From: an uncultured Myxococcales bacterium
GTDB lineage: Bacteria > Myxococcota_A > UBA9160 > UBA4427
Assembly: GCA_965603475.1 (NCBI GenBank)
Contig: CBFDDD010000001.1
Location: forward strand, 40,003-104,002
DNA length: 64,000 nt
Direction of reading: 5' to 3'
Below, piece after piece: positions 16,194 through 32,094 of the stretch (the first letter of the stretch is position 1; every line of letters starts with the position of its first letter). The notes beneath the pieces are model-generated. The model was given only the letters and a program-made list of their open reading frames with translations. It made no database searches and was not told the DNA's origin. Both the position numbers and the translations under genes were made by a program.

Positions 16194-16214
16194 TTCGAGG
16201 CCAGGTAGTCGCCC

Positions 16215-17180
16215 ATGCTCACTAGCGAAATCCTCGGACGCGTCCGAGAAATCCAGGTTCGCACCGGCCGTCAGGTCGCCGATGTGTTAGCGGGCGAGTA
16301 CGTCTCGGTCTTCAAGGGACGTGGTGTCGAATTCGACGAGGTCAGGCCCTATGTGCCGGGGGACGATGTCCGATCGATCGACTGGAATGTCACCGCACGG
16401 ATGGGCGAGCCCTATATCAAGCGCTATGTAGAAGAGCGACAACTCACATTGATGTTGATGGCCGATGTATCCGCGTCCCAGGATTTTGGATCGGTGGGAC
16501 GAAGCAAGCGAGAGTCGACCGCTGAACTCTGCGCTCTGCTCGCGTTCTCGGCGACTCGCAACGATGACAAGGTCGGGCTGGCGCTCTTTCACGGTGATAT
16601 CGAGCAATACATCCCGCCGCGAAAAGGCCAGAAACATGCTTTGCGGGTCGTTCGCGAAGTCCTGGCCCACGGTCAGGAAGACTCCGGGGACGCCGAAGTC
16701 GCATCACAGGGACTCTTTTCGAGATTACGTGGTCTGGTCAATTTCCGCCGCAGGCCTCGCGCGCCGCGGGAGTCGACGGACATTCGGTTTGCCCTCGAAT
16801 TTTTCATGCAGGTCAATAAACGTCGCACGATTTGCTTCGTGGTGAGCGATTTCCTCGATGAGGGATTCGAGAAAGCAATGATCGTGGCGAACCGAAAACA
16901 CGACGTCATTGCAGTTCTCGTGACCGATCCGAACGAGCTCGACATGCCGAATGTCGGGCTGGTTACGCTGCGCGACGCGGAAACCGGCGAGACACAAGTC
17001 GTGGATACGGGTTCGAAGGCGTTTCGAACCGAAGTCCACGAACGTACGCAAGCGCGAGTGCGTGATCTCGCAGGGCGCTTCGCAGCGGTTGGGATCGACT
17101 TCATCCACGTCGACGCGGCCGGAGACGTCATTGACCCGCTCGTACGTTTTTTCCGTATGCGCGCGCTTCGAGGACGCTGA
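16215..17180 (+). CDS. DUF58 domain protein (VWA-like, MoxR partner)
   Basis: GEYVSVFKGRGVEFDEVRPYVPGDDVRSIDWNVTAR is the DUF58 signature. It sits immediately downstream of the MoxR gene. Confidence 0.85.
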   Translation: MLTSEILGRVREIQVRTGRQVADVLAGEYVSVFKGRGVEFDEVRPYVPGDDVRSIDWNVTARMGEPYIKRYVEERQLTLMLMADVSASQDFGSVGRSKRESTAELCALLAFSATRNDDKVGLALFHGDIEQYIPPRKGQKHALRVVREVLAHGQEDSGDAEVASQGLFSRLRGLVNFRRRPRAPRESTDIRFALEFFMQVNKRRTICFVVSDFLDEGFEKAMIVANRKHDVIAVLVTDPNELDMPNVGLVTLRDAETGETQVVDTGSKAFRTEVHERTQARVRDLAGRFAAVGIDFIHVDAAGDVIDPLVRFFRMRALRGR

Positions 17181-18187
17181 TGAGATCGGGAGTCCAAGCC
17201 ACGATTCGGTTCCTGTCCGTCGTTTTGATTCTCTCGGCGAGCGGGCTAGCCCGAGGCGCCGACAGCATCGAGCGTCAAAGCGAGCGTGGCCCCGTTCGCG
17301 TCGATCTCGCGATCACTCCAGCCGAGCCTGTGATCGGTGACGTGATCGAGCTTCGGCTGGAGGTCCACGCCGAGGCCGGTGTCGAAGTCATGATGCCGGA
17401 GTTCGGCGAAGCACTGGGTCGATTCGAGATCGTCGATTTTGCACCGAGCCAGCAGCAAGACGAAACGGGCGGGAGTATTGCGCGACAGGCCTATCGCCTG
17501 CAGCCAGCGCATTCGGGTACACAGACGATTCCGCCTCTACGCGTCGAATTCGTGGATCGCCGTGCTGGGCGCTCACCTGCGCCCGAAGGCGAAGACGCCT
17601 ACGAGGTCCTGACCGAGAGGGTTTCACTCGAGATTGCGCCGATTCTGGCGGAGGACGCTCCACTCGCGCTGCGCCCGGCGCATTCCGATCTTGGTCCGCG
17701 ACGAACGCCGTCGGGGCCGTGGTGGGTCTGGGCGGTAGCGCTGCTGCTGGCAGTGGGTGGGGCCGCGCCCTTTGCCTGGCGCGCATTCGTTGCTGCGCGT
17801 GAACGACAACGTAGACAGAGCGCGTACGACGTGGCCCGTTCGGCACTCGACTTGTTGCTTCAGGGAGGACGACCGACTGCGGCAACCATGGATCGGTTCT
17901 ATGTCGAGCTGTCGCTGATCGTGCGAAGCTATCTCGAAGATCGGTTTGCTCTGCGTTCTCCCGAGCTCACGACGCAAGAGTTCTTGACCGAAATGGGTCG
18001 CTCGCCCGATCTTGCGCGATCGCACCAGCAGCTTCTGCAGAATTTTCTCGAACAGGCGGATCTCGTCAAATTTGCGGGATATCGACCGGATGCCGAGGTC
18101 GTTTCCGAATCGATCGCTGCAGCAGAGAAGTTCCTGGGCGAGACACAGAACTTCGTTCGGACCACGGCGGAGTTGAGCCATGCCTGA
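17180..18187 (+). CDS. membrane protein with BatD-like N-terminal domain and DUF4381-like C-terminal domain
   Basis: Signal peptide, an Ig-like region resembling BatD (VRVDLAITPAEPVIGDVIELRLEV), one TM (WWVWAVALLLAVGGAAPFAW), then a DUF4381-like tail (TTQEFLTEM ... ADLVKFAGYRP). ATG overlaps the upstream TGA (TGATG). Confidence 0.5.
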   Translation: MRSGVQATIRFLSVVLILSASGLARGADSIERQSERGPVRVDLAITPAEPVIGDVIELRLEVHAEAGVEVMMPEFGEALGRFEIVDFAPSQQQDETGGSIARQAYRLQPAHSGTQTIPPLRVEFVDRRAGRSPAPEGEDAYEVLTERVSLEIAPILAEDAPLALRPAHSDLGPRRTPSGPWWVWAVALLLAVGGAAPFAWRAFVAARERQRRQSAYDVARSALDLLLQGGRPTAATMDRFYVELSLIVRSYLEDRFALRSPELTTQEFLTEMGRSPDLARSHQQLLQNFLEQADLVKFAGYRPDAEVVSESIAAAEKFLGETQNFVRTTAELSHA

Positions 18188-19217
18188 ACTGGCAAACTTC
18201 GAGTTCAGCGATCCGCTGCTGCTTCTCTTCGGTCTGTTGGCGCCCCTGGTGTACGTGCAGGCGAGCCGACTTCCATCCGTCGTCCACTATTCGAGCCTCC
18301 GCCTGGTCGCCGGGTCGACGCGGTCGCTTCGGTCGCGGCTGGGCTGGCTGCCCGCTGCGCTCCTGGCCCTGGCGACGCTGGCCTTGTCGGTCGCGCTGGC
18401 CGGCCCGAGAACGGGGAACTCCGTCAGTGAGGTGAAGCGAGAAGGCATCGCGATCGGGATGGTCGTCGATCGGTCCGGCTCGATGGAAGCGCGTGATTTC
18501 GTGCGCGGGGATACCAGTACGAGCCGACTCGATGTCGTGAAGAAGATCTTTCACGACTTCGTTGCCGGAGGAGGCAGTTTTGGGGAAGGTCGGGAAGACG
18601 ATCTGATCGGCCTGATCACTTTTGCACGTTATGCGGACGGGCTTTGTCCGTTGACTCTGGATCACGGGAGTCTGATTGCGATTCTCGACCAGATCGAGAC
18701 GCCTGTAGATCAGAATGAGGATGGAACCGCAGTCGGAGATGGGCTCGCACTCGCGGTCGAGCGGCTTCGCCGTCAAGAGGCGGCTTCGAAGATCGTCATT
18801 CTCCTGACCGACGGCGTCAACAACGCCGGTGAGATCGAACCGCTCCAGGCCGCGGAGCTGGCTGCTCAATACGGAATCAAGGTCTACACGATCGGTGCGG
18901 GTTATACCGGCTTTGCGCCTTATCCGGTTCGGCGTGCCGATGGTCGGACTTCGCTACAGCGCGTACCGGTTGAAATCGATGAGGTGACGTTGCAGCAGAT
19001 CGCACAGCGCAGTGGCGGTCGGTATTTTCATGCGACCAATGAGGAAGGGCTACGCGAGGTCATCGAGGAGATCGGGAGACTCGAGCGCAGCGAGGTCAGC
19101 GAGATTCGCTATCTCGAATACGACGTGCATTTTGCGCCCTTTGTGGCTTCGGCTCTCTTCCTCGTGACATTGGCTGCTCTGCTCTCGAGCACCTGGCTTC
19201 GGAGGTTGCCGGGATGA
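18180..19217 (+). CDS. VWA domain membrane protein, BatA-like
   Basis: N-terminal TM helices, MIDAS motif MVVDRSGSM, VILLTDGVNNAG, and a C-terminal TM. The start overlaps the upstream gene by 8 nt. Confidence 0.8.
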   Translation: MPELANFEFSDPLLLLFGLLAPLVYVQASRLPSVVHYSSLRLVAGSTRSLRSRLGWLPAALLALATLALSVALAGPRTGNSVSEVKREGIAIGMVVDRSGSMEARDFVRGDTSTSRLDVVKKIFHDFVAGGGSFGEGREDDLIGLITFARYADGLCPLTLDHGSLIAILDQIETPVDQNEDGTAVGDGLALAVERLRRQEAASKIVILLTDGVNNAGEIEPLQAAELAAQYGIKVYTIGAGYTGFAPYPVRRADGRTSLQRVPVEIDEVTLQQIAQRSGGRYFHATNEEGLREVIEEIGRLERSEVSEIRYLEYDVHFAPFVASALFLVTLAALLSSTWLRRLPG

Positions 19218-22200
19218 GCGATACACCCGTGCATTTCGTGCACCCCGAATTCATGCATGCGCTCTGGATCTGGGCATTCGCTGTGCTGGCACTCGTCTTG
19301 CTCGAGCGACGCGGTCACGGCGCGTTGGATCGGTTGGTGAGTCCCGCGCTGCGGGATCGGCTGGTCGACCGTCCCTCGCGCTGGCGGCGTTGGGCGCGCG
19401 TCGGGCTGCTCGGGTTGGCAGGGTTTTCGATGATCGTGGCCCTCATGCAGCCGCAGTGGGGCTCTCGCTTCGTGGCGACGCCGCGTGTCGGCGCGGAGAT
19501 CATGATCGCGCTCGATGTTTCGCGCTCGATGCTGGCAGACGATGCGAAACCCTCGCGACTCGAGCGTGCGAAGGCCGAGATCTCCGATCTGCTTTCGTAT
19601 CTCGATGACGACTATGTCGGCTTGATCGCCTTTGCGGGCAGGGCAGCCGTGCTCTCCCCGATGACTCCAGACAAGAGCTTTCTGCGCCTCGCTCTCGATC
19701 GGGCGGGGCCCCATGTCGTCTCGCGAGGCGGAACGAGCCTGGCCGAACCGATTCTTCGCGCCGTGGCCGGGATGGGCGAGCCGGGTCCTGCCCAGCGAGC
19801 GCTGCTCCTGATCACGGACGGAGAGGATCACGATTCCTTCGCAATGGACGCCGCAAAGACCGCGGCAGAGGCAGGAATCAAGATCATCGCGATCGGATTT
19901 GGCGACGAGGCCGGAAGCCAGATCTATCTTCGCGATCCGAAAACCGGCGCGCGTAGCCTTCTGCGTGACGGGGAAGGGCGCGCGGTCGTCAGTCGGCTCG
20001 ACGGTGATCTGCTTAGGGAGATTGCGCTCGAGACGGATGGCGCCTTTGTGCCTGCCGGTACAGGCGTGTTGGATCTGGCTTCGATCTACGATGCACACAT
20101 TGCACCGTTGACCCGAGGTCAACTCGATGAACGGGGTCGGACGATTCGGGACGAAGCCTTCCAGTTCTTCGTCCTGTTCGCGATCATCTGCCTTGTCGCC
20201 GCCGCGTCGATCGCTTCAGCATCGGGATCGAAGCGCGCCACGCGTGCATCGCGAGTCGTTCCGCTCTTAGTGGCGATCGTGTTTCTTTCAGTTTCAGCAC
20301 CGCCAGTCCATGCTCAATCCGAAGAAGCCGCCTCTCCCGCGCCACCGACCACTCCTGAAACACCCGCAATTCCGGGGCCAGACGGAGCGGGGCTTTCCGA
20401 GGATGCGAGCGGGACGAAAGAGGATTCCCGCTCGAGATTCAACCGTGGGAACGAGAAGCTCGAGGCCGGTGATCCGGTCGCGGCGACCGCGCTGCTGCGT
20501 GAAGCAAGGCGTGACGCGACCGATGATGTCGTTCTTCGTTATGCGGCGACCTACAATCTAGGTATGGCTGCGGCGGCAAGAGCAGACGCCCTCGAAGCCG
20601 AAAACGCGTCGGAGGCATTGGCCGCACTCTATGAAGCGGCAGACTGGTTTCGCGAGGCGGTCGTGGCGAGACCGGATGAGTCGGATCCACGTCACAATCT
20701 CGACGTGACACTGCGCCGTGCGCTGATTCTGTCGGATCAGATCTCGCGCGAGGACGCGAAAGAACTCGATGTAGAAATCGACGCGATGATCGAGGCCCAG
20801 CGGCAACACGTCGCTCAGACGGCGGGATTGCTCGAGGCGGTCGTGAGAGCCGGGGAGCTCGGTGCGGCCGAAGAACTGCGCCCGGCTTTTCGCGATTCCG
20901 CGACGCAACAGCGACTCATGCTTTCGGACGCGAACGCCCTGGGCGAGCGCGTCGCACGCGAACGAGAACAATTGATGGCTGCAGCGGAGGAGGAGCGTTC
21001 GCCTGAAGATGCTCTCAAAGCGGCACAGCTCGAGGCGGTTCTCGTTCATCTCGACAGTGCGATCGATCGAATGGGACAGACCCGCCGGCAACTTCGACAG
21101 CGCAGGGCAGAGCGTGCGTATCGCCGTGGCTCGAACGCGCTGGGAGATCTGAAGCGAGCCCGTGATCAGCTGCGCGACCTGGTTCCGCAGATCGATATCC
21201 TGTTGGCCGAAGTCGGGCAGCTCGCGAATTCGACAAGCGCCTTGGCCAATGCCGGACTATTGAGGGATCCCACGGCTGGGACGACGCAGCCGGCTGGCCT
21301 ACCCGCATTCTTGACTCGCGAGTCGGTCGAAGCCGATAGTGGGCAGATCGAAGCGCGGGTTGTCGAGTTGGCGACACGCCTCTCGCTTGCGGCGGAGCAG
21401 GCGCTGCAAGCCTCGGCGCCGGGTAGCTCGCCCGAGACTTCACCGCCGGGTTCGCCGGACCCAGCAACGCAAGCGATCGCATTCCAGTCGGCGGCGCCGC
21501 TCGTCGATTCGGCCGGTAGCGCAATGGCTCGGGTGACGGCGTCGATCGGCGCGGGCAACTACGATCTGGGGCTGCTCGACGAAGTGAAAGCCGGTGAAGC
21601 TCTGGCGGCGGCACGAGAGCATTTCCTGGACCTTCGCCAGCTCCTCAACGTGACCTATTCCGACGAGCAGCAGATCGCGAGGCTTGCCAGCTCCGACGAT
21701 CCGGCGCTCGTGCAGGAGCGTGAGGAGGTCGTGGTCGGACTCGCGGAAATTCAAGTGCAGAACAGCCAGCGAGTCCTTCGACTGGAGAAACTTCTGGAAC
21801 AGGAAAAGGCTTCTCGAATCGCACAGCTCGAAGCCGAGGCGACACCCGATGCGAATGCGCCCGAGGATGACAATGGGGGTCCGGTAGAACAGGAGCGACG
21901 TCGATTTGAGCTGGCCGATCAACTGCTTGCCCTGGCATCGGAGGGCATGGGAGAGACGACGGATGCACTCGGTCGAGCGGACGCCGAGCGCGCTCCCGAC
22001 TGGCCGCGGGTGAGCGAGGCGGCGACGCGCGCCACGGAGCATCTCGATGGAATCCGGACACTCTTCTTCTCGATCGCGGAACACGTGCGAAAGCTTGCCC
22101 AGGATCAGATCGACGTGCGCGATCGAACCCAGGATGTGATCGCGCTTTCAGTGACCGAATCAACGCCCAGTGGTGAAGCGAATACGCCCGAGTCATCCGA

Positions 22201-22843
22201 AGGGGCCGATGCAGCTGAATCGACGAGCGTTTCGGAGACTGAGTCGGAGTCCGAGCCGCCTCCCGAGTCGCGCGGCCCCGAGACCTTGATTCGCTCCCAG
22301 GCCCTCGCAGGCGAGCAGCAGAAGCTCGAAGCACGTGGAGGAGAACTGGCCGATGCACTCTTCGTGCAGGCAGAGGAGATGGGGCAGGGGGCAACCGAAG
22401 ACGCTCCGCCGGATGCGGGCGCCGAGCGCGACCGGATTCGAAAAGCAGCAGAGCATATTGCGCTTGCGCAGCTCGCGATGGTCGACGCGAGTGAGTCGTT
22501 GGAGGCGGAAACCGAACCACTGGCGCCGGCGCAAGTCGCCCAGACGCTGGCCGTCGACGAGCTGAACGCGGCGCTCGCCCTGCTTTCGCCCCCTCCTCCG
22601 CCGGAGCAGGGCGACCCGGAACAGGACGAATCGCAGTCGGAAGACGACTCGCAGGAAGATGGCGAGGAGGAAGAACAGGGAGATGGCGGGGCCGAGGCCA
22701 GTCCAGAGGATGCGGAGGAAGAATCGATGGACGACCTTTCGCAGCTGCTGCAAGGTGTTCGGGATCGTGACGCTGAAAGACGGCGTGATCAAGATCGAGA
22801 AGAGCAGCGACGGCGTACGGAGCCCGTGGGCAAAGATTGGTGA
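19214..22843 (+). CDS. giant VWA + TPR protein (BatB/BatC-like fusion) with long helical spacer and poly-acidic C-terminal tail
   Basis: Two N-terminal TMs, VWA MIDAS IALDVSRSM, LLLITDGEDHD, a third TM (FFVLFAIICLVAAASIASA) and a TPR-like RFNRGNEKLEAGDPVAATALLREA. About 700 aa of Ala/Glu/Arg/Leu-rich helix follow, then an acidic tail from aa 1125 (PPPPPEQGDPEQDESQSEDDSQEDGEEEEQ). The start forms an ATGA overlap. Confidence 0.7.
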   Translation: MSDTPVHFVHPEFMHALWIWAFAVLALVLLERRGHGALDRLVSPALRDRLVDRPSRWRRWARVGLLGLAGFSMIVALMQPQWGSRFVATPRVGAEIMIALDVSRSMLADDAKPSRLERAKAEISDLLSYLDDDYVGLIAFAGRAAVLSPMTPDKSFLRLALDRAGPHVVSRGGTSLAEPILRAVAGMGEPGPAQRALLLITDGEDHDSFAMDAAKTAAEAGIKIIAIGFGDEAGSQIYLRDPKTGARSLLRDGEGRAVVSRLDGDLLREIALETDGAFVPAGTGVLDLASIYDAHIAPLTRGQLDERGRTIRDEAFQFFVLFAIICLVAAASIASASGSKRATRASRVVPLLVAIVFLSVSAPPVHAQSEEAASPAPPTTPETPAIPGPDGAGLSEDASGTKEDSRSRFNRGNEKLEAGDPVAATALLREARRDATDDVVLRYAATYNLGMAAAARADALEAENASEALAALYEAADWFREAVVARPDESDPRHNLDVTLRRALILSDQISREDAKELDVEIDAMIEAQRQHVAQTAGLLEAVVRAGELGAAEELRPAFRDSATQQRLMLSDANALGERVAREREQLMAAAEEERSPEDALKAAQLEAVLVHLDSAIDRMGQTRRQLRQRRAERAYRRGSNALGDLKRARDQLRDLVPQIDILLAEVGQLANSTSALANAGLLRDPTAGTTQPAGLPAFLTRESVEADSGQIEARVVELATRLSLAAEQALQASAPGSSPETSPPGSPDPATQAIAFQSAAPLVDSAGSAMARVTASIGAGNYDLGLLDEVKAGEALAAAREHFLDLRQLLNVTYSDEQQIARLASSDDPALVQEREEVVVGLAEIQVQNSQRVLRLEKLLEQEKASRIAQLEAEATPDANAPEDDNGGPVEQERRRFELADQLLALASEGMGETTDALGRADAERAPDWPRVSEAATRATEHLDGIRTLFFSIAEHVRKLAQDQIDVRDRTQDVIALSVTESTPSGEANTPESSEGADAAESTSVSETESESEPPPESRGPETLIRSQALAGEQQKLEARGGELADALFVQAEEMGQGATEDAPPDAGAERDRIRKAAEHIALAQLAMVDASESLEAETEPLAPAQVAQTLAVDELNAALALLSPPPPPEQGDPEQDESQSEDDSQEDGEEEEQGDGGAEASPEDAEEESMDDLSQLLQGVRDRDAERRRDQDREEQRRRTEPVGKDW

Positions 22844-24798
22844 AGCGCAAGACCAGTACATCCCTGATCGGTCCGACCCGCGAAGGCACTCGCCGTGACG
22901 TTGTCCTGCTGTGTGTGTGGCAACGCGTGTTGCTACGAAGGTTGGGCGTTGCGAGCGTTCTCGGCCTGATGCTCCTGGCGGCCCCCGCCGTCGCGCAAGA
23001 CGTTCAGATCCAGATCGCCCGTGGACCCCATTATGTTGGCGAGGCCTTCGAGGTCCAAGTCGTTGCGAGTGATTTCGAGGAGGAGCCGCCTCCGGAGATC
23101 TCCGCCGGTCCTCTCGAAGGTGGACGTCTTCGTTATGTTGGCGTCTCGCCGAGTACTTCGACTTCGATCTCGATCATCAATGGAAAAATGAGTCGGGTAC
23201 ACGAAGTGACCTTCGTCTATCGATACGAATTGACCGGAACACGGGAGGGCCGAATCAAGATTTCTCCCTTCACCGTGGCCCAGGCGAACACTTCGCTCAG
23301 TACGCGCAGCTTCGATGTCGCCGTTGAAGGCGTTCCAGAAACGAATGACGTCGAGCTTGTGCTCGAGCTGCCCAAAGGTCCGATCTTCGTTGGACAGAAG
23401 GTTCCGGTCGCAATCGAGTTTCGCATCGATCGTCAGACTCAAAAGGACCTGATCTCCTATCAGGTCGACGTGCCCCTTTTTGATTCACCCACACTTCGTT
23501 TTCTCGACGAGCCACCTCCGCGGACCGATACGCAACTCGAAATCCAGACCGAGGCTGGCGTACTCCGGCTGGCTGCGGTCTCTTCGGAAACACAAATCCG
23601 AGGTCGACCGGCGCTGGTCGTTCGTGCCGAGAGGACGATGATCGCGATCTCGCCCGAAGAGATTCGGGCTGAGGCGCCGAAGGTCTTCATCAGCCAGGGA
23701 GCGGGTTTCCGTCGTGATGTCTTCAATCAGCGTCGGCCGACATCGACCGAGAAATTCATGGCGGTTGGAAGGCCCGTTCGGCTCGAGGTGATCGAGGTTC
23801 CGCGAACGGGTCGGCCAGCGAGTTTTGCGGGTGCGGTCGGGGCGGGCTTCAGCCTCGAGGTCGATGCGGATCGGAGTGTCGTGCAGCTGGGCGAGCCGAT
23901 CATGCTTTCGTTTCATCTCCGAGGCAATGGCGATCTTTCGAGTGCCAGTCTGCCGGCCCTCGGCGCCGAAGGGCTCTTCGATCCGACTCGCTTTCGACTC
24001 CCGCAAGATTCTCCGGCCGGGCTCGTCGACGAAGACGGGAAGCATTTCGAGGTGACTCTGCGAGTCCTGGACGCAGGGGTTCGGGAAATCCCAGCGCTGG
24101 CCTATTCGTGGTTTGATGCCGAGACTCGTCGTTTCGAAACGACTCGATCGCGACCGATCGCGCTTTCGGTCGGTGCGGCCGAGATCATTGGCGCCGACTC
24201 TGTTGCGCGACGTGACGGCGCTATTTCAGTGGCAGAAACGGAAGTGAAGGCTGCAGATCGCCCTCCCGAGCTTCCCGGCGATGGAACCGAGCGAAGCACG
24301 AAGTTGTCCCTGACGGGCGCAAACCTGGCGGTCGACCGTGATCTGACGCGACTACTTCGCGACGGGCACATGCAAGGACAGAATCTGGTGGTGACGCTGC
24401 CTCTCTACACGGCGGGCCTCGCCTTTCTCGCTCTGGCCGGTGTGATGGCGCGTCGTCGCGCAGCCGACCCACGACTCAGGGAGCGGACACAGGCGCTCAG
24501 CCAGGCGGAGCGGGCGATCACGAAAGCGTTCGGGCGATCCGACGGAGGCGGTCCAGCGGCTCTCGGTCGCGCTCTCAGGGAGTTGGTCGCGGCTCTTCCG
24601 AACGAGGCGAGTGCCGAGTTCGATCAGCTGATCGCGGAGTGTGACACCCTTCGATTCGCGCCGACTGCGGCTAGATCAGAGTCTGGCATAGAGGCCGCGG
24701 ATGGCTGTCCGCCCATTCCTCCAGACCTCCAGGAGCGGGCGCGACGCTTGATCGCCGAACGCATGAATCTGGATGGCGATTCCCTGGAGGACTCATGA
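22837..24798 (+). CDS. BatD-like (oxygen-tolerance family) exported protein with C-terminal TM
   Basis: Signal peptide (VLGLMLLAAPAVAQD), repeated Ig-like segments (FEVQVVASDFEE, FTVAQANTSLSTRSFDVAVEG), and a late TM (LVVTLPLYTAGLAFLALAGVMA). The exact start is uncertain; TTG 22837 is from the ORF track and later starts are possible. Confidence 0.6.
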   Translation: MVKRKTSTSLIGPTREGTRRDVVLLCVWQRVLLRRLGVASVLGLMLLAAPAVAQDVQIQIARGPHYVGEAFEVQVVASDFEEEPPPEISAGPLEGGRLRYVGVSPSTSTSISIINGKMSRVHEVTFVYRYELTGTREGRIKISPFTVAQANTSLSTRSFDVAVEGVPETNDVELVLELPKGPIFVGQKVPVAIEFRIDRQTQKDLISYQVDVPLFDSPTLRFLDEPPPRTDTQLEIQTEAGVLRLAAVSSETQIRGRPALVVRAERTMIAISPEEIRAEAPKVFISQGAGFRRDVFNQRRPTSTEKFMAVGRPVRLEVIEVPRTGRPASFAGAVGAGFSLEVDADRSVVQLGEPIMLSFHLRGNGDLSSASLPALGAEGLFDPTRFRLPQDSPAGLVDEDGKHFEVTLRVLDAGVREIPALAYSWFDAETRRFETTRSRPIALSVGAAEIIGADSVARRDGAISVAETEVKAADRPPELPGDGTERSTKLSLTGANLAVDRDLTRLLRDGHMQGQNLVVTLPLYTAGLAFLALAGVMARRRAADPRLRERTQALSQAERAITKAFGRSDGGGPAALGRALRELVAALPNEASAEFDQLIAECDTLRFAPTAARSESGIEAADGCPPIPPDLQERARRLIAERMNLDGDSLEDS

Positions 24799-25598
24799 AG
24801 CGTTCGGCCTTTGCGATCCTCGCTTTGATTTCGATCGGGCTCGTTGGGCCGGCCGCAGCGGGGTCGAATGCCTCGGATCAGGCCGAACGATTGGAGCAGG
24901 CGCTCAGCCAGTATGCGCAGGCCCTGGAGGAGCCGGATCGCGACGAACGGCTCGCGATCTTCGCGCAGGCCGAATACGGGTTCGATGCAGTGATCGAAGG
25001 TGGGACGGAAAATGCGTCCCTCTATACGAACCTCGGAAACGCAGCTCTTCAGGCGGAGCATATCGGGCAGGCTGTACTCGCGTATCATCGAGCGCTTCGA
25101 CTCGATCCCGATGCGACAACGGCGCGTCAGAATCTGATCCATCTTCGTACGCTCCTTCCGGGCTGGGTTCCGAGACCGACTTCATCCGACAGCGTGCAGC
25201 CGCTCTTCTTCTATCGTCGGATCTCGACAGCGAACCGTTCGTATCTGGCCGCGGGTTGTTTTGTTCTGGCCGCGGCGAGTCTCGCGATTTCCGTGCGTCG
25301 CCGTGAAGGGGCGTGGCGCGGAGCCGCTCTCATGGGCGGAGTGGCCTGGGCACTGATCGTGGCCTCGATCGTCTTCGATTCGGCCGAAAGCAGGACCGAG
25401 TTGGCTGTCATCACCGCTGACGAGGCGTTCGCCCGATCAGCAGACTCGCGGCTTGCGGCGCTCGCCTATCCCGACCCCCTACCCGGAGGCGTCGAGGTGG
25501 AACAGCTCGAGGAACGTGCCGACTGGACGAGGGTACGATTACAAAACGGTCGCGACGTGTGGGTGCGCGGGTCGGACGTGACGCGCGTGGTAGAGTGA
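24795..25598 (+). CDS. TPR + SH3b protein, BatE-like
   Basis: Signal peptide, TPR (NLGNAALQAEHIGQAVLAYHRALRLDPD), TM segments, and a C-terminal SH3-like WTRVRLQNGRDVWVRGSDV. ATGA overlap with the upstream gene. Confidence 0.6.
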   Translation: MKRSAFAILALISIGLVGPAAAGSNASDQAERLEQALSQYAQALEEPDRDERLAIFAQAEYGFDAVIEGGTENASLYTNLGNAALQAEHIGQAVLAYHRALRLDPDATTARQNLIHLRTLLPGWVPRPTSSDSVQPLFFYRRISTANRSYLAAGCFVLAAASLAISVRRREGAWRGAALMGGVAWALIVASIVFDSAESRTELAVITADEAFARSADSRLAALAYPDPLPGGVEVEQLEERADWTRVRLQNGRDVWVRGSDVTRVVE

Positions 25599-25677
25599 TC
25601 CACCAGGCTGCGAACGTGATATTGATTCCAGTTCGAATTAGTCGGATCGGTTGCATCGATTGAGAGGGGGGTGGCTC

Positions 25678-26838
25678 ATGGCCCGAATTCGAGTTGCCAT
25701 CGCAGGTGTCGGCAACTGCGCGAGCGCGCTGATTCAGGGAATCGAATACTACCGAACGCGCAGCGAGGCCGAGCACGTCGGATTGATGCACGCCCAGATT
25801 GCTGGCTATCGATCGTCGGATATCGAGATCGTGGCCGCCTTCGATGTCGACTCGAGAAAGGTGGGAACTCCGCTGGAGGAGGCGGTCTTTGCGGCGCCGA
25901 ATTGCGCTCAGGTCTTTGCGCCCGAGTTACCTGCGAGCGGAGTCGAGGTCCAGATGGGGCCCGTCCTGGATGGTGTGGCGCCGCATATGGAAAACTACCC
26001 GGAGTCCGAGGCGGTTCGCCTATCAGATCAGTCAGCGGTCGATGTCGTCGATGTGCTCAAGGCGACAGGAGCTGAAGTCCTCATCTGTTATTTGCCCGTC
26101 GGATCGGAACTCGCCGTGCGACATTATGCGCAGGCCTGTCTCGATGCGGGTGTTGCGTTGGTCAATTGTGTACCGGTCTTCATCGCATCGGACAGCTCCA
26201 CGGACAGCTCCACAGAGAAAGGCTGGCCCGAACGATTCAGGGCTGCGGGGCTTCCGATCATCGGCGATGATATCAAGAGCCAGGTGGGCGCGACGATCGT
26301 GCATCGAACGATTGGTCGTCTGCTGGCGGATCGTGGTGTCGAACTCGATCGGACCTATCAACTGAACACGGGCGGTAACACCGATTTTCTCAACATGTTG
26401 GAGAGAGACCGCCTCCAGTCGAAGAAGATCTCGAAGACGGAATCGGTACAGAGCCAGTTGGGCCAACGACTCGATTCTCGAGAGATCCATATTGGCCCTT
26501 CGGACTACGTTTCCTGGCAGAATGACAACAAGATTGCATTCATCCGCCTGGAAGGGCGGGGATTCGGGGGTGTGCCGCTCGAACTCGAACTTCGGCTCTC
26601 GGTACAGGATTCTCCAAACAGCGCCGGAGTCGTCATCGACGCTGTGCGCTGCGCAAAGCTCGCTCTCGATCGAGGCCTGGCCGGGCCGCTCGAGGTCCCG
26701 AGTGCCTATTTCATGAAGAGTCCGCCCGTACAGATGCGTGATGACGAGGCGAGACGCGCACTCGACCGCTTCATCGAGGACAAACCGCTTGCGAGCGCAT
26801 CGGATGAGGCTAAGAGATTCCCGTCCCGAGAGACGTAG
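25678..26838 (+). CDS. ino1: myo-inositol-1-phosphate synthase
   Basis: N-terminus [25 protein letters not shown], then [15 protein letters not shown] and [11 protein letters not shown], typical of bacterial/archaeal-type MIPS. Start set at ATG 25678. Confidence 0.85.
26191..26214 (+). repeat. in-frame tandem 12-nt duplication inside ino1
   Basis: GACAGCTCCACG is followed by GACAGCTCCACA (11 of 12 identical), encoding DSSTDSST. Confidence 0.8.
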
Positions 26839-26913: not shown

Positions 26914-26945
26914 GTTCAAAATTCGGAAATGTTCTCACTTTTGAC
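26914..26945. promoter_or_regulatory. AT-rich imperfect inverted repeat upstream of the Fur-family gene (candidate auto-operator)
   Basis: GTTCAAAA (26914-26921) ... N17 ... TTTTGAC (26939-26945). This is the most AT-rich patch of the local region and lies directly 5' of the regulator gene. Confidence 0.25.
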
Positions 26946-27488
26946 TTGCCGCAAAGCGTTCCACCCCACTATTGTTCGAGCGTGAATTCAACCCCCCCGG
27001 CTGATTCGACGTCTCCACGTCGCAACCGCTCTCGTCAGCGAGAACGTATCCGAAGCTGGCTTCAGCAGACCGATTCCCATCCGACGGCGGCCGATATCCA
27101 CGAAGCGCTGTTGCCCGAGATGTCTGGGCTCTCGCTCGGGACCATCTACCGAAACCTCGAGATACTCGTTGCCGACGGCGAGATTGATGAGGTTCCGTCC
27201 ACGGTTGGTGCAACACGCTACGACGGGAACGTTCTGCCCCATCATCATTTCAATTGCGAGCGATGCGGGAGAATCCTCGATGTGGATCTGCCGGTCCCGC
27301 GCGGGCTCACTCGACGTCTCGCCGACGACCATGGGCTTCACTCGAGTCGTACTCGAATTTCTTTCTTCGGACTCTGCTCCGTCTGTACGGAGAGTCCGGG
27401 GTTGGATGGAATGAACGATCAACCAGGACCAATCAAGCTCAATCAAGAACCAATCAACCAATCCAGGAGGAGGAACAGACATGGGTGA
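26946..27488 (+). CDS. Fur-family metalloregulator (PerR-like by context)
   Basis: Winged helix (SLGTIYRNLEILVADGEIDEV) and metal sites HHHFNCERCG and CSVC. The stop overlaps the rubrerythrin ATG by 8 nt. Start is uncertain: TTG 26946 or in-frame GTG 26982. Confidence 0.8.
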   Translation: MPQSVPPHYCSSVNSTPPADSTSPRRNRSRQRERIRSWLQQTDSHPTAADIHEALLPEMSGLSLGTIYRNLEILVADGEIDEVPSTVGATRYDGNVLPHHHFNCERCGRILDVDLPVPRGLTRRLADDHGLHSSRTRISFFGLCSVCTESPGLDGMNDQPGPIKLNQEPINQSRRRNRHG

Positions 27489-27906
27489 CCTGAAGGGAAG
27501 CCAGACGCACCAGAATCTCAAGGACGCCTTTGCGGGCGAGTCCCAGGCCAACCGCCGCTATCTCTATTTCGCGAAGCAGGCCGACATCGAGGGCTACCCG
27601 GACGTGGGTGGACTTTTTCGTGATACCGGGGAGGCCGAGACCGGTCATGCCCATGGTCATCTCGACTACTTGAAGCGCGTGGGCGATCCCGCGACCGATC
27701 TACCGATTGGTGACACGGGGCAGAACCTCGCTGCGGCCGTTGCGGGAGAGACCTACGAGTACACGGAGATGTATCCGGGTATGGCGAAGACGGCGCGCGA
27801 CGAGGGTCACGCGGATGTTGCGGAATGGTTCGAGACGCTCGCGAAGGCGGAGAAGTCCCATGCGGGACGTTTCCAGAAGGCGCTCGATACGCTGGAGACT
27901 CTGTAG
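27481..27906 (+). CDS. rubrerythrin-family diiron protein (no rubredoxin domain)
   Basis: [26 protein letters not shown] plus [10 protein letters not shown] and [11 protein letters not shown] plus AEKSHAGRF give the four-helix diiron ExxH pattern. At 141 aa it has no C-terminal CxxC pairs. Confidence 0.85.
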
Positions 27907-27946
27907 GCCATCGGCCGACATGAGTCGCTGCGTTGTGTGCTTGATC

Positions 27947-27986
27947 GCTGTGCGCTCGAAGTCGGTTTTCGGCTCGGGCGCACAGC
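27947..27986 (+). terminator. GC-rich hairpin between rubrerythrin and the Fe-S gene (partial terminator or processing/attenuation site)
   Basis: GCTGTGCGC (27947-27955) pairs perfectly with GCGCACAGC (27978-27986) around a 22-nt loop. The following TGTCGTTTCG is only weakly U-rich. Confidence 0.35.
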
Positions 27987-28011
27987 TGTCGTTTCGAGGT
28001 AGGGGCAAGTC

Positions 28012-29280
28012 TTGAAGAACGCGAGCCTGAGGGACGCTGAATTTCTCGATCGAGAACATCTCGACGCAGAGCTCACGCGCGTTTTCGAGAAATGCCACGA
28101 CTGCCGTCGTTGTCTTCCGCTCTGTCCATCATTTCCGAGCCTCTTCGATGCGATTGATCGCCACGAACAAGAAGCCTCACTGCTCAGCACGAGCGAAACG
28201 CGCGAGGTCGTCGACCTCTGCTACCAGTGCAAGCTCTGTTTCAACCACTGCCCCTACCATCCGCCGCACGAGTGGGAAGTCGATTTTCCGAAGTTGATGA
28301 CGAGGGCCAAGCTCGTCTATGCGCAGGAGGAAGGAATTCCACTTTCGGAGCGAATTGGCGCGCAACAAGATCTCATGGGCAAGGTGTCCTGCCGAACGGC
28401 CTCGTTGACGAATGCAGCCTTCAAGAATCGGGCCGTCCGTCTGTTGATGGAGAAGACGACGGGCATCGATCGGCGATGGATCATGCCGACCTACGACAAA
28501 CAGCCTTTCTCCAGAGTGCTTGCTGCGGGCGCCGCCCGGTCTGAAGCCGCGTCGACCGAAGAACGCGGCCGCGTGATTCTATTCAGCACCTGCTTCGTCG
28601 AGTACAGCGAAGCGGAGACCGCGATCGCGGCCGTGCAAGTCCTCGAACACAACGGGATTCGAGTGGAGGCTGGCTATGACGCCTGCTGTGGAGCGCCCTT
28701 TCTTCACGGCGGAGATCTCGCGAGTGCGCGTCGGAATGCAGAAAAGGTGGTGGCCGCTCTGGCCCCGCGCATTCGGGATGGGCTCCAGGTGGTCGTTCCG
28801 GGGCCAACGTGTTCATATCAACTCAAGAACGAGTTTCCCGAGATGCTGGATACGGAAGAGGCCCGGTTGGTTGCCGACAACACGCTCGATCTCGGGGAAT
28901 ACGTGTTCAAGATTGCGGCTGCGAAACAGCTCGACCGGGACTTCAAGAAGAAACTGGGGCGTATCGCCTATCATCTGCCATGCCATCTCAAAGCACAGAA
29001 TATCGGGTTTCGCTCGAAACAGATCCTCGGGCTGATCGCCGATGAAGTCGTGATGATCGACGCCTGTTCGGGCGTCGACGGAACCTGGGGCATGAAGGCC
29101 CGTCACTACGAACAGAGTCTCAAGATCTGTTCGAATTTGACGAGTTCGATCAACGAAGCCGACCCGGATCATGTCGCAACGGACTGTCCGCTCTCGGCAC
29201 TCCGAATCAAGGAACAGACGGGTCGAGAGGCGGTTCATCCGATCGTGCTCTTGCGCGATGCGTATGGATTCGAGAACTGA
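28012..29280 (+). CDS. (Fe-S)-binding protein with two 4Fe-4S motifs and two CCG-type domains (HdrD/GlpC-like)
   Basis: CHDCRRCLPLCP and CYQCKLCFNHCPY are followed by DACCGAPF and PCHLKAQ ... IDACSGVDGTWG. TTG start. Confidence 0.8.
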   Translation: MKNASLRDAEFLDREHLDAELTRVFEKCHDCRRCLPLCPSFPSLFDAIDRHEQEASLLSTSETREVVDLCYQCKLCFNHCPYHPPHEWEVDFPKLMTRAKLVYAQEEGIPLSERIGAQQDLMGKVSCRTASLTNAAFKNRAVRLLMEKTTGIDRRWIMPTYDKQPFSRVLAAGAARSEAASTEERGRVILFSTCFVEYSEAETAIAAVQVLEHNGIRVEAGYDACCGAPFLHGGDLASARRNAEKVVAALAPRIRDGLQVVVPGPTCSYQLKNEFPEMLDTEEARLVADNTLDLGEYVFKIAAAKQLDRDFKKKLGRIAYHLPCHLKAQNIGFRSKQILGLIADEVVMIDACSGVDGTWGMKARHYEQSLKICSNLTSSINEADPDHVATDCPLSALRIKEQTGREAVHPIVLLRDAYGFEN

Positions 29281-29367
29281 TCGGGCCGATCGGCGGGCCG
29301 TTCACGCCAATTGAACTTCCCGATACTTCCTACACCTATTTTCTACATTTCGAACGAGGAGGCAGCC

Positions 29368-29943
29368 ATGCGAGGGGTCGAAGCGAGTGAGATTCTCGAC
29401 CTGACTTCATACGAGAAGATTCGCCCCGATTTCGTCACTCGGATGATCGAACTCAAGCGGCCGCGCCGCGTCCATGTCGGCGAGATCCTGTGCTTCATCT
29501 TCGAGAACCGTGAAACTGTGATCTTCCAGATCCAGGAGATGACGCGTGCAGAGCGCACCGTTTCAGAGGACGCGATCGCGGCCGAAGTGGCGGTCTACAA
29601 TGAACTCGTTCCAGGGGATCACGAACTCTCTGCGACGCTGATGATCGAAATTCCGAATCAGACGAGTATCCGCCCCCAGCTCGACCGTCTGATCGGCATC
29701 GATGAGCACGTGCATCTCGACATCGGCGACGAAACCATCCGAGCCACCTTTGACGAGAAGCAGTTTCAGGAAGATCGGGTTTCAGCCGTTCAATATATTC
29801 GTTTTCCTCTCGGAAGAGCGCTGGCGGCGAAGTTTTGCGAATCGAGCATCCCCGTCGTGCTTCGTGTGGACCATCCAAGCTATACGGGTCAGACTGTGAT
29901 CGAAGGTGAGGCGCGCGCTTCGCTCGCGGGAGATCTGGCTTAG
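29368..29943 (+). CDS. DUF3501 family protein
   Basis: About 190 aa with FIFENRETVIFQIQEMTRAER and AVYNELVPGDHELSATLMIEI, matching my memory of DUF3501, which typically accompanies the preceding Fe-S protein. GAGGAGG precedes ATG 29368. Confidence 0.6.
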   Translation: MRGVEASEILDLTSYEKIRPDFVTRMIELKRPRRVHVGEILCFIFENRETVIFQIQEMTRAERTVSEDAIAAEVAVYNELVPGDHELSATLMIEIPNQTSIRPQLDRLIGIDEHVHLDIGDETIRATFDEKQFQEDRVSAVQYIRFPLGRALAAKFCESSIPVVLRVDHPSYTGQTVIEGEARASLAGDLA

Positions 29944-29970
29944 CTGACCCACTGAAAGAGGAGACTCTCC

Positions 29971-31164
29971 ATGACTGCACTCGAAGGAATTCGAATTCTC
30001 GATCTGAGCCAATACGAAGCGGGTCCTTCGTGTACCCAGGCGCTCGCGTGGATGGGAGCCGATGTCGTCAAGGTCGAGTCGATCGGAGGCGGCGATCCCG
30101 GCCGGTCGCTCGCTGTCGGTGGTGATTACTCGCCCTATTTCTGCAACTGGAACGCGAACAAGCGAAGCATGGCGATCGATCTGCTCCAGTCGGAAGGGCG
30201 CGATGTCTTTCTGCGTCTGCTGCCGAAATACGACATCGTCATCGAGAATTTCGGTCCCGGCGTCATGGACAAATTCGATTTGAGCTACGAGACGCTCGAG
30301 TCGGTTCATCCGGAAGTGATCTTCGTGCAGATCAAGGGCTTTGGATCCAGCGGCCCCTATGCGGATTTCAAAGCCTATGACATGGTCGCCCAGGCGGCTT
30401 CGGGGGCGATGTCGGTCACCGGGGAAATGGGCGCACGGCCGTTGCTTCCGGGGCCGACGATGGGTGATTCGGGGACTGGAATGCAGGCGGGAATGGCGAT
30501 TTTGGCCGCCTATATCCAGCGCCTTCGAACCGGCCGGGGCCAGCGAATCGAGATCTCGATGCAAGAGGCGATGACCTACTACATGCGAACGCGAATCGCG
30601 TTGCTCGCGGACTGGGGCAAGCAGGCGGCGCCGCGAATCGGCAATCGCATGGGCGGGCGCCCGACGGATCTCTATCCGTGTCGCGGGGGTGGGCCGAATG
30701 ACTACGTCTATGTCATTACGGTCACGGCTCGGCATTGGGACTCCCTCTGCCTCGCGATCGATCGTCCCGATCTGATCGCCGACCCACGCTTCGATACCGG
30801 AGAACATCGCGAGGCCAACGGCGATGCACTCTTCGAGGAGATCGCAAGCTGGACGCGGCAGCAGGAGAAGCACGAGGCGATGCGCGTGCTGGGGGCTGCC
30901 GGCGTTCCATGCTCGGCCATCCTGGATACGCACGATCTCTATCATGATCCACATCTGCAAGGGCGCGGCTTCATCGAGAAGGTCGAGCATCGAGATCTGG
31001 GCGAAGTTCCGCTTCTCGGGTTCCCGCCGCGAATGTCTGAAAGCCCTGTCACGTTCGAGCGCGCGCCTTATTTCGGTGAGCACACCGATCAGATCCTGGC
31101 AGAGGATCTGGGACTCGACGACGAGTCGATCAAAAAGCTGCGCACGGCGAAGGTTCTCTCATAG
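29971..31164 (+). CDS. family III CoA-transferase (CaiB/BaiF; formyl-CoA-transferase-like N-terminus)
   Basis: LEGIRILDLSQYEAGPSCTQALAWMGADVVKVE, plus a 397-aa length. Confidence 0.85.
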   Translation: MTALEGIRILDLSQYEAGPSCTQALAWMGADVVKVESIGGGDPGRSLAVGGDYSPYFCNWNANKRSMAIDLLQSEGRDVFLRLLPKYDIVIENFGPGVMDKFDLSYETLESVHPEVIFVQIKGFGSSGPYADFKAYDMVAQAASGAMSVTGEMGARPLLPGPTMGDSGTGMQAGMAILAAYIQRLRTGRGQRIEISMQEAMTYYMRTRIALLADWGKQAAPRIGNRMGGRPTDLYPCRGGGPNDYVYVITVTARHWDSLCLAIDRPDLIADPRFDTGEHREANGDALFEEIASWTRQQEKHEAMRVLGAAGVPCSAILDTHDLYHDPHLQGRGFIEKVEHRDLGEVPLLGFPPRMSESPVTFERAPYFGEHTDQILAEDLGLDDESIKKLRTAKVLS

Positions 31165-31196: not shown

Positions 31197-31281
31197 CACT
31201 TGTCGTGAGCGATGCGCCTGTTCCGGGAGAGCCCTGCTATTGTGCTCTCTACGTCGCCCGGCGAACCCCCAGGAGATTCCC

Positions 31282-32094
31282 ATGACCAACCTCGAAGGAA
31301 AAACCGCCATCGTGACCGGGGCGTCGAGCGGTATCGGCCGCGCGACGGCCGAGACCCTCGGTGCGGCGGGTGCGCATGTCTTTCTCGGCGGACGAACCGC
31401 CGCCGCGATGGAAACTTCGAAAAAGAAGATCGAAGAAGCGGGCGGCAAGGCCAGCGTGGTGACGCTCGACGTGCGTGATATCGCCCAGGTTCAAGAACTG
31501 GTTGGAACTGCAGTCCGCGAGAGTGGTCGACTCGACATCATGGTGAACAATGCGGGCGTGTCATTTCCGGCACCGATCCTCGAGGCGGAGCCGGAGAACT
31601 GGCGGGCGATGCTCGAAACGAACATTCTCGGACTGCTCGTGGGATGTCAGGCGGCGGTCAAGGCGATGCGAGAATGTCATGCGGAAGGACATATCGTGAA
31701 CATCTCCTCGATCGCGGCCCAACGATCCGACAGCGGCGTCTACGGATCGACGAAACACGCCGTCAATGCAATCTCCTCGTCGCTTCGCGGCGAACTCGAA
31801 GAGGACACCATTCGGGTCGTCAACGTGATGCCGGGTGCGATCGCGACGAACTTCGCGCGAAACTTCGACCCTGCTTTCGTAGAGGGATTCGTGAAAATGG
31901 CGGGACTCGATGTCGACGTTCGACAGGGAGAACGTCTGCCAGATGAGGTTTTCGAGAAACTGTCGACACAGCTTCGAAATCTACTCGGAGACCCCGCCGA
32001 TGTCGCAAACGCGATTCTCTACGCCGTCACCCAGCCTATCCAGGTCGACATCGCTGACATTGTCGTCCGTCCCGCAAAACACATCGATCTCTGA
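31282..32094 (+). CDS. SDR-family oxidoreductase
   Basis: TAIVTGASSGIG (TGxxxGxG), NNAG and YGSTKHAV (YxxxK). AGGAGA precedes ATG 31282. Confidence 0.9.
   Translation: MTNLEGKTAIVTGASSGIGRATAETLGAAGAHVFLGGRTAAAMETSKKKIEEAGGKASVVTLDVRDIAQVQELVGTAVRESGRLDIMVNNAGVSFPAPILEAEPENWRAMLETNILGLLVGCQAAVKAMRECHAEGHIVNISSIAAQRSDSGVYGSTKHAVNAISSSLRGELEEDTIRVVNVMPGAIATNFARNFDPAFVEGFVKMAGLDVDVRQGERLPDEVFEKLSTQLRNLLGDPADVANAILYAVTQPIQVDIADIVVRPAKHIDL

Follow-up and report, generated by a model that had tools for sequence, protein, structure and literature searches.

The 64,000-nt stretch of DNA analyzed here (hereafter the window; all coordinates follow its numbering) carries on the + strand a cluster of four genes, one of which encodes a rubrerythrin devoid of the rubredoxin domain. 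In order, the products are a PerR-like regulator of the Fur family (from a TTG at 26946 or a GTG at 26982 to 27488; Pfam FUR, 1.4e-20), an aerobic-type rubrerythrin of 141 aa (RBR, 27481-27906; Pfam Rubrerythrin, 7e-29), a GlpC/HdrD-type Fe-S protein of 422 aa (RFO, 28012-29280; Pfam CCG, two stretches, and Fer4), and a DUF3501 protein of 191 aa (29368-29943; PF12007, 4.8e-62). The open reading frame (ORF) of the latter, located on the same strand as rbr and about 1.4 kb downstream, opens with a TTG at 29311; the ATG at 29368 is the likely start, since nearly all homologues are 191 aa long. Two additional features are an operator-like palindrome at 26916-26944, an inverted repeat to which no strand is assigned and which includes a degenerate 19-bp 7-1-7 box (26921-26939), and a stem-loop at 27947-27986 on the + strand, in the rbr-rfo spacer, recognized both as an inverted repeat and by its folding energy. 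The four ORFs claimed in a preliminary description of the region were all found, are co-directional, and had been correctly identified. The start assigned there to the region, 26914, does not correspond to a start codon, and falls just 5' of the palindrome. The regulator and rbr genes overlap by 8 nt (ATGGGTGA), as had been reported, the TGA of the former spanning residues 27486-27488, the ATG of the latter residues 27481-27483. The nearest named homologues are found in uncultured marine Myxococcota- or "Deltaproteobacteria"-like metagenome-assembled genomes (MAGs), and the host is, as judged from these matches, a member of such an uncultured marine lineage. Related MAGs have in common with the window a wider synteny, which includes BatD, a TPR protein, the Fur-RBR-RFO-DUF3501 cluster and a CoA-transferase.

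[quoted passage not shown] The trio was subsequently called "aerobic-type rubrerythrin system" in the analysis of the Andalucia genome, where it is targeted to mitochondria (2020; PMC7050145), and the operon partners were again hypothesized to be electron donors in a preprint on the structures of the Burkholderia pseudomallei rubrerythrin, BpRbr (2025; PMC12154734). The window encodes all three proteins, in an unchanged order (RBR-RFO-DUF3501). The alignment of RBR to BpRbr (4DI0/9ONM) is gapless, DUF3501 superposes on 3FJV with a TM score of 0.92, and RFO is a GlpC-like COG0247 protein with a CCG domain. Differences reside in the PerR-like gene, which leads the window cluster, overlaps the rbr start and is missing in Burkholderia, in the uncultured marine Myxococcota-like host, and in the rfo and duf3501 genes, which in the window are uncoupled. 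By sequence, the locus is best described as a PerR-linked instance, from a Myxococcota-like lineage, of the aerobic-type rubrerythrin system already known. The "conserved but unexplained module" of the preliminary description is indeed conserved (79 loci, see below), but its novelty had been overstated, as both the trio and the electron-donor idea are in print (PMC5114695, PMC12154734).

The assignment of the rubrerythrin is straightforward. The protein covers positions 1-146 of a 194-position NCBIfam rubrerythrin model, hence the rubredoxin domain is absent, as had been noted for this 141-aa polypeptide. It scores 129.5 bits against the classical rubrerythrin model NF045767, the cut-off being 200, and features no CxxC pairs. 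The diiron ligands (EEH x 2) are E20, E53, H56, E90, E93, E124 and H127. The gapless alignment to BpRbr 9ONM/4DI0 has an E-value of 8e-64, the alignment to sulerythrin 1J30 of 5e-55, and these matches place the window RBR in the BpRbr/sulerythrin clade, of aerobic type. The association of a Fur/PerR-family regulator with a co-transcribed rubrerythrin recalls the perR-rbr-rdl operon of Desulfovibrio (Nitratidesulfovibrio) vulgaris. In contrast to that operon, the rubrerythrin of the window is of the aerobic type and lacks the rubredoxin domain, and its partners are RFO and DUF3501, not a rubredoxin-like protein. The regulator of the N. vulgaris rbr operon is referred to as Fur/Zur in PMC12154734.

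The neighbourhood of DUF3501 genes was monitored in species-representative genomes. At least 594 DUF3501 loci were confirmed, and the best 80, from at least 10 phyla, were analyzed by ORF calling and by phmmer searches in which the four window proteins were the queries; no DUF3501 ORF emerged from one locus (L046), and the set thus comes to 79. Most abundant is the arrangement found in the window, FUR-RBR-RFO-DUF3501 (29/79), followed by RBR-RFO-DUF3501 (22/79) and RBR-DUF3501-FUR (12/79). RBR-RFO-DUF3501-FUR and RFO-DUF3501 were each found in four loci, FUR-RBR-DUF3501 in three, FUR(-)-RBR-DUF3501 and RBR-DUF3501 in two each, and DUF3501 alone in one. RBR adjoins DUF3501 in 74 of the 79 loci, and four of the five exceptions have a flank truncated at the end of a contig. 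RFO is likewise adjacent in 59 loci, a same-strand Fur-family gene in 48. That these genes occur together, indicated as a check in the preliminary description, is strongly supported by the figures for RBR and RFO, which greatly exceed chance; RBR, RFO and DUF3501 accompany one another almost obligatorily. The family is large, with 1983 DUF3501 proteins at E <= 0.001 in a library of 50%-identity cluster representatives. The Fur regulator is a lineage-dependent fourth component of the cluster: four matching Burkholderia plasmid records carry no annotation, and the sequence scan of Burkholderia cenocepacia revealed RBR-RFO-DUF3501 without a Fur gene. No description of the Fur/PerR linkage of the trio was found in a literature search, and none of the words Fur, PerR, OxyR and regulator occurs in the text of PMC5114695.

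Clusters missing RFO reside mainly in Binatia, and in some Acidimicrobiia (L010, L018-L020, L025, L027, L028, L033, L036, L041, L055, L063 and others), and extend the RFO-less state described in Thermoproteales (PMC5114695). Of 80 loci, 14 (L013, L024, L028, L029, L030, L035, L042, L044, L045, L046, L052, L059, L070 and L079) encode, beside the cluster or in its vicinity, a membrane protein about 230 aa long which features the Urate_ox_N domain (PF06181). In some of them its gene directly follows that of Fur or of DUF3501; none was found in the window cluster.

The closest PDB match of the regulator is B. subtilis PerR (BsPerR; 2FE3, 3.5e-16), the second a Streptomyces Zur. The regulatory site of PerR is made up by H37, D85, H91, H93 and D104, while Fur has Glu at 104, and Zur has Cys at 85 and no H37 (PMC4866751). 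In BsPerR numbering, the window protein keeps all five residues, as well as the Cys4 zinc site (C96, C99, C136, C139). The H-D-H-H-D set and the Cys4 site are found in essentially all of the approximately 50 Fur homologues adjacent to the cluster, D104 in 51 of 53 sequences. The sole two distant, opposite-strand Fur genes (L053, L067) provide an internal control, and carry Glu/Glu. The NCBIfam PerR models score 87 and 77.5 bits on the regulator, the Fur model 49, and Fur/Zur models 49 and below. The curated PerR cut-offs are nonetheless missed by a wide margin (87 vs. 200 for NF047406, 77.5 vs. 180 for NF052545). The attribute "PerR-like" is therefore appropriate as first proposed, the five ligands, the Cys4 site and the ranking of the models being in its favour, though at scores below the cut-offs; judged by these same scores, the protein is neither an established PerR orthologue nor an equivalog of any curated PerR. 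It shares with BsPerR (2FE3/3F8N) the Fur fold, the structural zinc site and the regulatory residues, but matches it at 63 bits only, under the NCBIfam equivalog cut-offs, and bears N- and C-terminal extensions which BsPerR lacks. The N-terminal extension is located ahead of the Fur domain. The C-terminal tail stretches for about 30 aa past the second CxxC (27390-27488), and the corresponding DNA holds the rbr ribosome-binding site AGGAGGAGG.

The palindrome upstream of the regulator gene (TCAAAATTCGGAA-ATG-TTCTCACTTTTGA) has 13-nt arms, 77% complementary. Alignment with the upstream regions of close relatives shows that the palindrome is conserved (CAGGAATAATTCCTG in L008, CAGGAATTCTTCCTA in L001). 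A position weight matrix (PWM) refined over all loci yields AATAG(G/T)AATnATT(C/A)CTATT, a 7-1-7 box whose AATnATT core is typical of operators of the Fur family. Sites were scored as operators when exceeding the 99th percentile of random windows and lying no more than about 60 nt from the first gene. The 19-bp 7-1-7 palindrome is found upstream of 35 of 46 Fur-linked clusters, and of one of 26 Fur-less clusters; the PWM having been trained on the same upstream regions, the absolute counts are optimistic; training made no use of how Fur-linked and Fur-less clusters differ. PerR-type regulators and the 19-bp palindrome go along with the cluster in many phyla. In the window, the box at 26921-26939 is the second-best PWM site in 64 kb, and is found at a position orthologous to that of the boxes of the relatives. 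The best site of the window (13328-13346, AACGGTAATCATTCTCGCT, score 19), considered as another PerR-box target, falls inside an ORF encoding a 504-aa rhomboid-domain protein (12663-14177), and is probably due to chance. The operator of the relatives and that of BsPerR are alike in being 7-1-7 palindromes with the AATnATT core; the consensus differs, being TAG(G/T)AATnATT(C/A)CTA here, TTATAATnATTATAA in B. subtilis.

The 105-nt spacer between rbr and rfo (27907-28011) had been described as hosting a strong hairpin, and both inverted-repeat and folding analyses confirm it. The 13-bp arms of the repeat span residues 27947-27959 and 27974-27986. The predicted folding energy of the spacer is -55 kcal/mol (z = -4.75), and none of 200 shuffled sequences is as stable. 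The region 26500-30300 matches no Rfam family. Similar structures are found at the same place in other loci: the first 93 nt 3' of the rbr stop, analyzed in 76 loci, have a median z of -2.8, with z < -2 in 47 and z < -3 in 36, versus 6/59 and 0/59, respectively, in control segments internal to the RFO coding region. Structure and position are kept across phyla, the sequences differ. Only 8 of 68 strong post-rbr hairpins carry four or more T in the 9-nt tail, so most of them are not classical intrinsic terminators. The window hairpin, which lacks a proper U tract, was likewise ruled out as a canonical intrinsic terminator. Further downstream, no more than 10 nt separate the RFO and DUF3501 genes in 40 of 56 loci; in 26 the two overlap, mostly by 4 nt. 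Spacing of this kind indicates that among the loci analyzed rfo and duf3501 are usually translationally coupled. The architecture [perR-rbr] stem-loop [rfo=duf3501] may be read as a device yielding RBR in excess, and matched amounts of RFO and DUF3501 as a complex. Matched synthesis fits with the DUF3501-RFO fusions reported in Nitrosomonas (PMC5114695).

RFO features two CxxCxxCxxxCP motifs (4Fe-4S), followed by two CCG stretches. The two 4Fe-4S motifs and two CCG domains attributed to the 422-aa protein in the preliminary description were retrieved both by Pfam and by reading of the motifs. Fifteen Cys (8 + 7) are conserved in 56 orthologues; RFO has no transmembrane segment, and is classed as soluble. 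CCG-1 includes C194, C225, C226 and C267, CCG-2 includes C324, C352 (in CSG) and C392. In Hdr proteins the full motif CXnCCGXmCXXC is present in both CCG domains, and provides the ligands of two non-cubane clusters. The full set is absent from both RFO domains, and this pattern is kept in the 56 orthologues. E. coli GlpC (29% identity) has all the 15 RFO Cys and two more in CCG-2, where CCG and CxxC replace the CSG and CPLS of RFO. GlpC models are also the best among NCBIfam models, at scores below the cut-offs (PRK11168, 258.1 vs. 278; TIGR03379, 163.9 vs. 279.9). No homologue was found by searching PDB sequences at E <= 0.01, and the link to HdrB and LutA came from a fold search. The AlphaFold2 model of RFO has a mean pLDDT of 75.8, most of the CCG half being in the 80-95 range, and Foldseek matches this half, at a probability of 1.0, to LutA (9A6L_A, TMt 0.77) and HdrB (5ODC_B, 8RWN_B and 7BKB_B, TMt about 0.6). 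RFO shares with HdrD/HdrBC, LutA and GlpC an N-terminal ferredoxin module with two [4Fe-4S] clusters, followed by two CCG domains. It differs from HdrD/HdrBC in having four Cys in CCG-1 and three in CCG-2 (CSG for CCG, no CxxC), and from GlpC in scoring under the equivalog cut-offs and in the absence of a GlpAB flavoprotein nearby. Neither glpA nor glpB genes were found near RFO, and neither an HdrE/DsrM-type membrane cytochrome b nor an HdrA partner in the cluster or its flanks. The label "HdrD-like" used for this protein holds for architecture and for the fold of the CCG half, which matches HdrB and LutA; by sequence RFO is nearest to GlpC, and the full CCG Cys set is missing. RFO is a family of its own, as proposed in the 2016 paper (PMC5114695).

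DUF3501 had been described as a protein with no assigned function, which is still the case, although a crystal structure is available (PDB 3FJV, from B. pseudomallei, deposited as "uncharacterized novel protein"). The window protein matches 3FJV at 6e-31. Its AlphaFold2 model (pLDDT 90.8) superposes on this structure, and no other PDB structure matches the model. As modelled, DUF3501 is an orphan fold which offers no catalytic hint. Conserved Tyr, Arg, Lys and Glu residues cluster on the first three helices in a set of 115 diverse sequences; residues Y15, R19, K30, R33, R34, E46, T50, Q54, E57, R60, E62, E73 and Y77 make up a conserved face. Fusions of DUF3501 to RFO or RBR were not found among the best 120 matches of either homologue search, all single-domain close relatives. 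Rare fusions to other domains were observed, to a Dps-like ferritin in P0221, to an Rce1-like CAAX protease in P0122, to an AHSA1/SRPBCC domain in P0185; each is known from a single cluster, and could be an artefact of gene calling. P0221 was considered as a DUF3501-RBR fusion, and rejected, its ferritin-like domain being Dps-like and not RBR-like. A length of about 300 aa is common among DUF3501 proteins (as in P0124, P0125, P0127, P0130, P0138, P0141, P0164, P0174, and the product of L031, 5875-6888), these longer forms carrying a C-terminal extension of about 100 aa with no Pfam match. A profile of the extension matches members of the HIT family in the PDB (Fhit 9UCH, 1e-3; 7MQW, 2e-3; 1FHI, 8e-3), the histidine triad being shrunk to a single 'RWH'. 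By its sequence, the extension looks like a degenerate HIT-like domain.

Upstream of the cluster the window hosts a complete Bat/'aerotolerance'-type operon (15210-25598), with all the genes on the + strand: a MoxR AAA ATPase (15210-16193), DUF58 (16215-17180), a weakly BatD-like protein (17180-18187), BatA/vWA (18180-19217), a vWA protein of 1209 aa (19214-22843), BatD (22837-24798) and a TPR+SH3 protein (24795-25598). In the related loci L001-L004, BatD and a 277-aa gene after it are similarly found ahead of the Fur-RBR cluster. This gene content suggests that the Bat operon and the Fur-RBR cluster make up an oxygen-stress gene neighbourhood. Immediately 5' of the regulator gene lies a gene for an inositol-3-phosphate synthase (Pfam Inos-1-P_synth, 25651-26838), whose score against the mycothiol-type INO1 model of NCBIfam, 466 bits, is under the cut-off of 638; L001-L004 have in its place a large autotransporter gene on the opposite strand. 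Downstream, only 27 nt (29944-29970) separate DUF3501 from a family III CoA-transferase (29971-31164), and no terminator-like site was found after DUF3501; transcription may, on both accounts, continue into the genes of the CoA-transferase and of the SDR (31240-32094). In related Myxococcales MAGs an AhpC/TSA peroxiredoxin is encoded between DUF3501 and the CoA-transferase (8691-9164 in L001).

Taken together, the genes would fit a peroxide-controlled operon in which RFO and DUF3501 feed electrons to an RBR peroxidase, and the chain as a whole has about an even chance of being correct. In the lack of peroxide, a metal-loaded dimer of the PerR-like protein would sit on the palindrome 5' of its own gene, and repress perR-rbr-rfo-duf3501. 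H2O2 would oxidize the His ligands of the regulator, as in B. subtilis PerR, and the operon would be derepressed. The diiron site of RBR would then reduce H2O2 to water, the two electrons needed at each turnover reaching RBR via the two [4Fe-4S] clusters of RFO, which would replace the rubredoxin-domain route of classical rubrerythrins. RFO would be recharged by a cellular reductant through its HdrB/LutA-like CCG module, plausibly by quinol, by analogy with GlpC, or alternatively by a low-molecular-weight thiol. DUF3501, an orphan fold with no Cys or cofactor motif, would act as a non-redox docking or adaptor subunit which binds RBR, and would be made stoichiometrically with RFO through translational coupling. 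The U-tract-less stem-loop after rbr would keep RBR in excess over RFO and DUF3501. A role in oxidative stress is supported by the peroxiredoxin found after DUF3501 in relatives, and by OxyR, which adjoins the cluster in Sideroxydans (2020; PMC7852563). A bolder and only tentative version, one that would sooner fail than hold in all its parts, sees in the PerR-linked form a self-contained, peroxide-induced peroxidase of an uncharacterized kind. Its CCG module with a reduced Cys set (4 + 3, unlike HdrB and GlpC) would draw from quinol or a low-molecular-weight thiol, DUF3501 would be an obligatory docking subunit handing electrons to the diiron centre, and control would be exerted by a dedicated PerR clade with the TAG(G/T)AATnATT(C/A)CTA operator.

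Several observations weigh against the electron-supply chain. The box of the window is degenerate, its PWM score of 6.1 being below the threshold of 8.95, and a scan of residues 26700-30200 revealed no sigma-70-like promoter. The rfo-duf3501 gap of the window, 87 nt, is an exception to the coupling seen elsewhere. The CCG domains of RFO, through which electrons would enter, are without the full HdrB Cys set. In the 115 DUF3501 sequences no Cys is conserved, and H169 is the sole conserved His; the role assigned to this protein in the mechanism is a guess; no functional study of either RFO or DUF3501 was found in the literature. In 17 of the 79 loci RBR-DUF3501(-Fur) clusters have no RFO within 6 kb: RFO is therefore dispensable, and DUF3501, which cannot be an RFO adaptor only, must serve RBR itself in some way. 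Other electron donors are also possible, as ferriperoxin, a rubredoxin-less protein of Hydrogenobacter, is active in vitro with a ferredoxin:NADP reductase. Finally, the physiological role of sulerythrin has been called unclear (PMC12154734, PMC7465337), and metal binding by BpRbr is promiscuous (PMC12154734).

Promiscuous metal binding, the RBR-DUF3501 pairs without RFO, a DUF3501 with many conserved Glu, Arg, Tyr and His and no redox motif, and the P0221 fusion to a Dps-type ferritin-like domain would agree with RFO and DUF3501 being devoted to the maturation or repair of RBR, for example to loading or re-reducing the diiron site or to its correct metalation in air, turnover electrons coming from general donors such as ferredoxin or flavoprotein reductases. 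Such a role looks improbable: two ferredoxin-type clusters and a CCG module are typical of electron-transfer subunits, the tight stoichiometric coupling of rfo to duf3501 is no less fitting for a structural complex than for a chaperone, and there is no sign that DUF3501 binds metal. A similarly low probability is assigned to functions other than H2O2 scavenging, such as O2 reduction, detoxification of organic hydroperoxides or NO, or iron oxidation and storage, with RFO and DUF3501 providing the link to respiration. Ferritin-like diiron proteins are catalytically versatile, GlpC, the nearest characterized relative of RFO, is part of a respiratory dehydrogenase, and the Urate_ox_N membrane protein recurs near the cluster; yet PerR-type and OxyR regulators and peroxiredoxin neighbours all point to peroxide, and characterized rubrerythrins are peroxidases (PMC5114695, PMC12154734).

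Slightly less probable still is that the signal sensed by the regulator is a metal (Fe, Mn or Zn) and not peroxide, the module being primarily metal-regulated. The distance from the NCBIfam PerR equivalog cut-off (87 vs. 200 bits), the Streptomyces Zur as second PDB match, an HHH run resembling that of some Zur proteins, and the very nature of the module, made of iron proteins, are consistent with metal sensing. Asp is found, however, at both D85 and D104, where Zur and Fur have Cys and Glu, respectively, H37, absent in Zur, is kept, PerR models are ahead of Fur/Zur models by about 40 bits or more, and the accompanying genes are peroxide-defence genes. That the four genes sit side by side by chance, or through simple synteny, with no functional linkage, could be argued from the 105-nt and 87-nt spacers of the window only; the neighbourhood statistics already refute it, the same gene order being found in at least 10 phyla and 79 loci, in line with the 185 of 4461 genomes reported to have the whole trio, orphans being almost absent (PMC5114695).

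The aerobic-type trio is widespread: more than 590 species genomes gave a match in the scan, and the trio is also found in the mitochondria of some protists and in pathogens such as Burkholderia pseudomallei. How rubredoxin-less rubrerythrins get reduced, and what DUF3501 does, are the underlying questions. The linkage to PerR, the operator, the hairpin, the coupling and the RFO Cys signature are incremental additions, which sharpen experiments and leave the picture unchanged. From a dedicated PerR-type regulator and its operator one would expect induction by peroxide, from the conserved stem-loop between rbr and rfo-duf3501 an unequal stoichiometry, from the rfo-duf3501 translational coupling a complex, and from the RFO-specific Cys signature a cluster composition unlike that of HdrB and GlpC. 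If the reading of the PerR-linked form as a self-contained peroxidase were true, PerR-type peroxide sensing would be extended to Acidobacteriota, Nitrospirota, Binatia, Methylomirabilota/Rokubacteria, Acidimicrobiia and Myxococcota.

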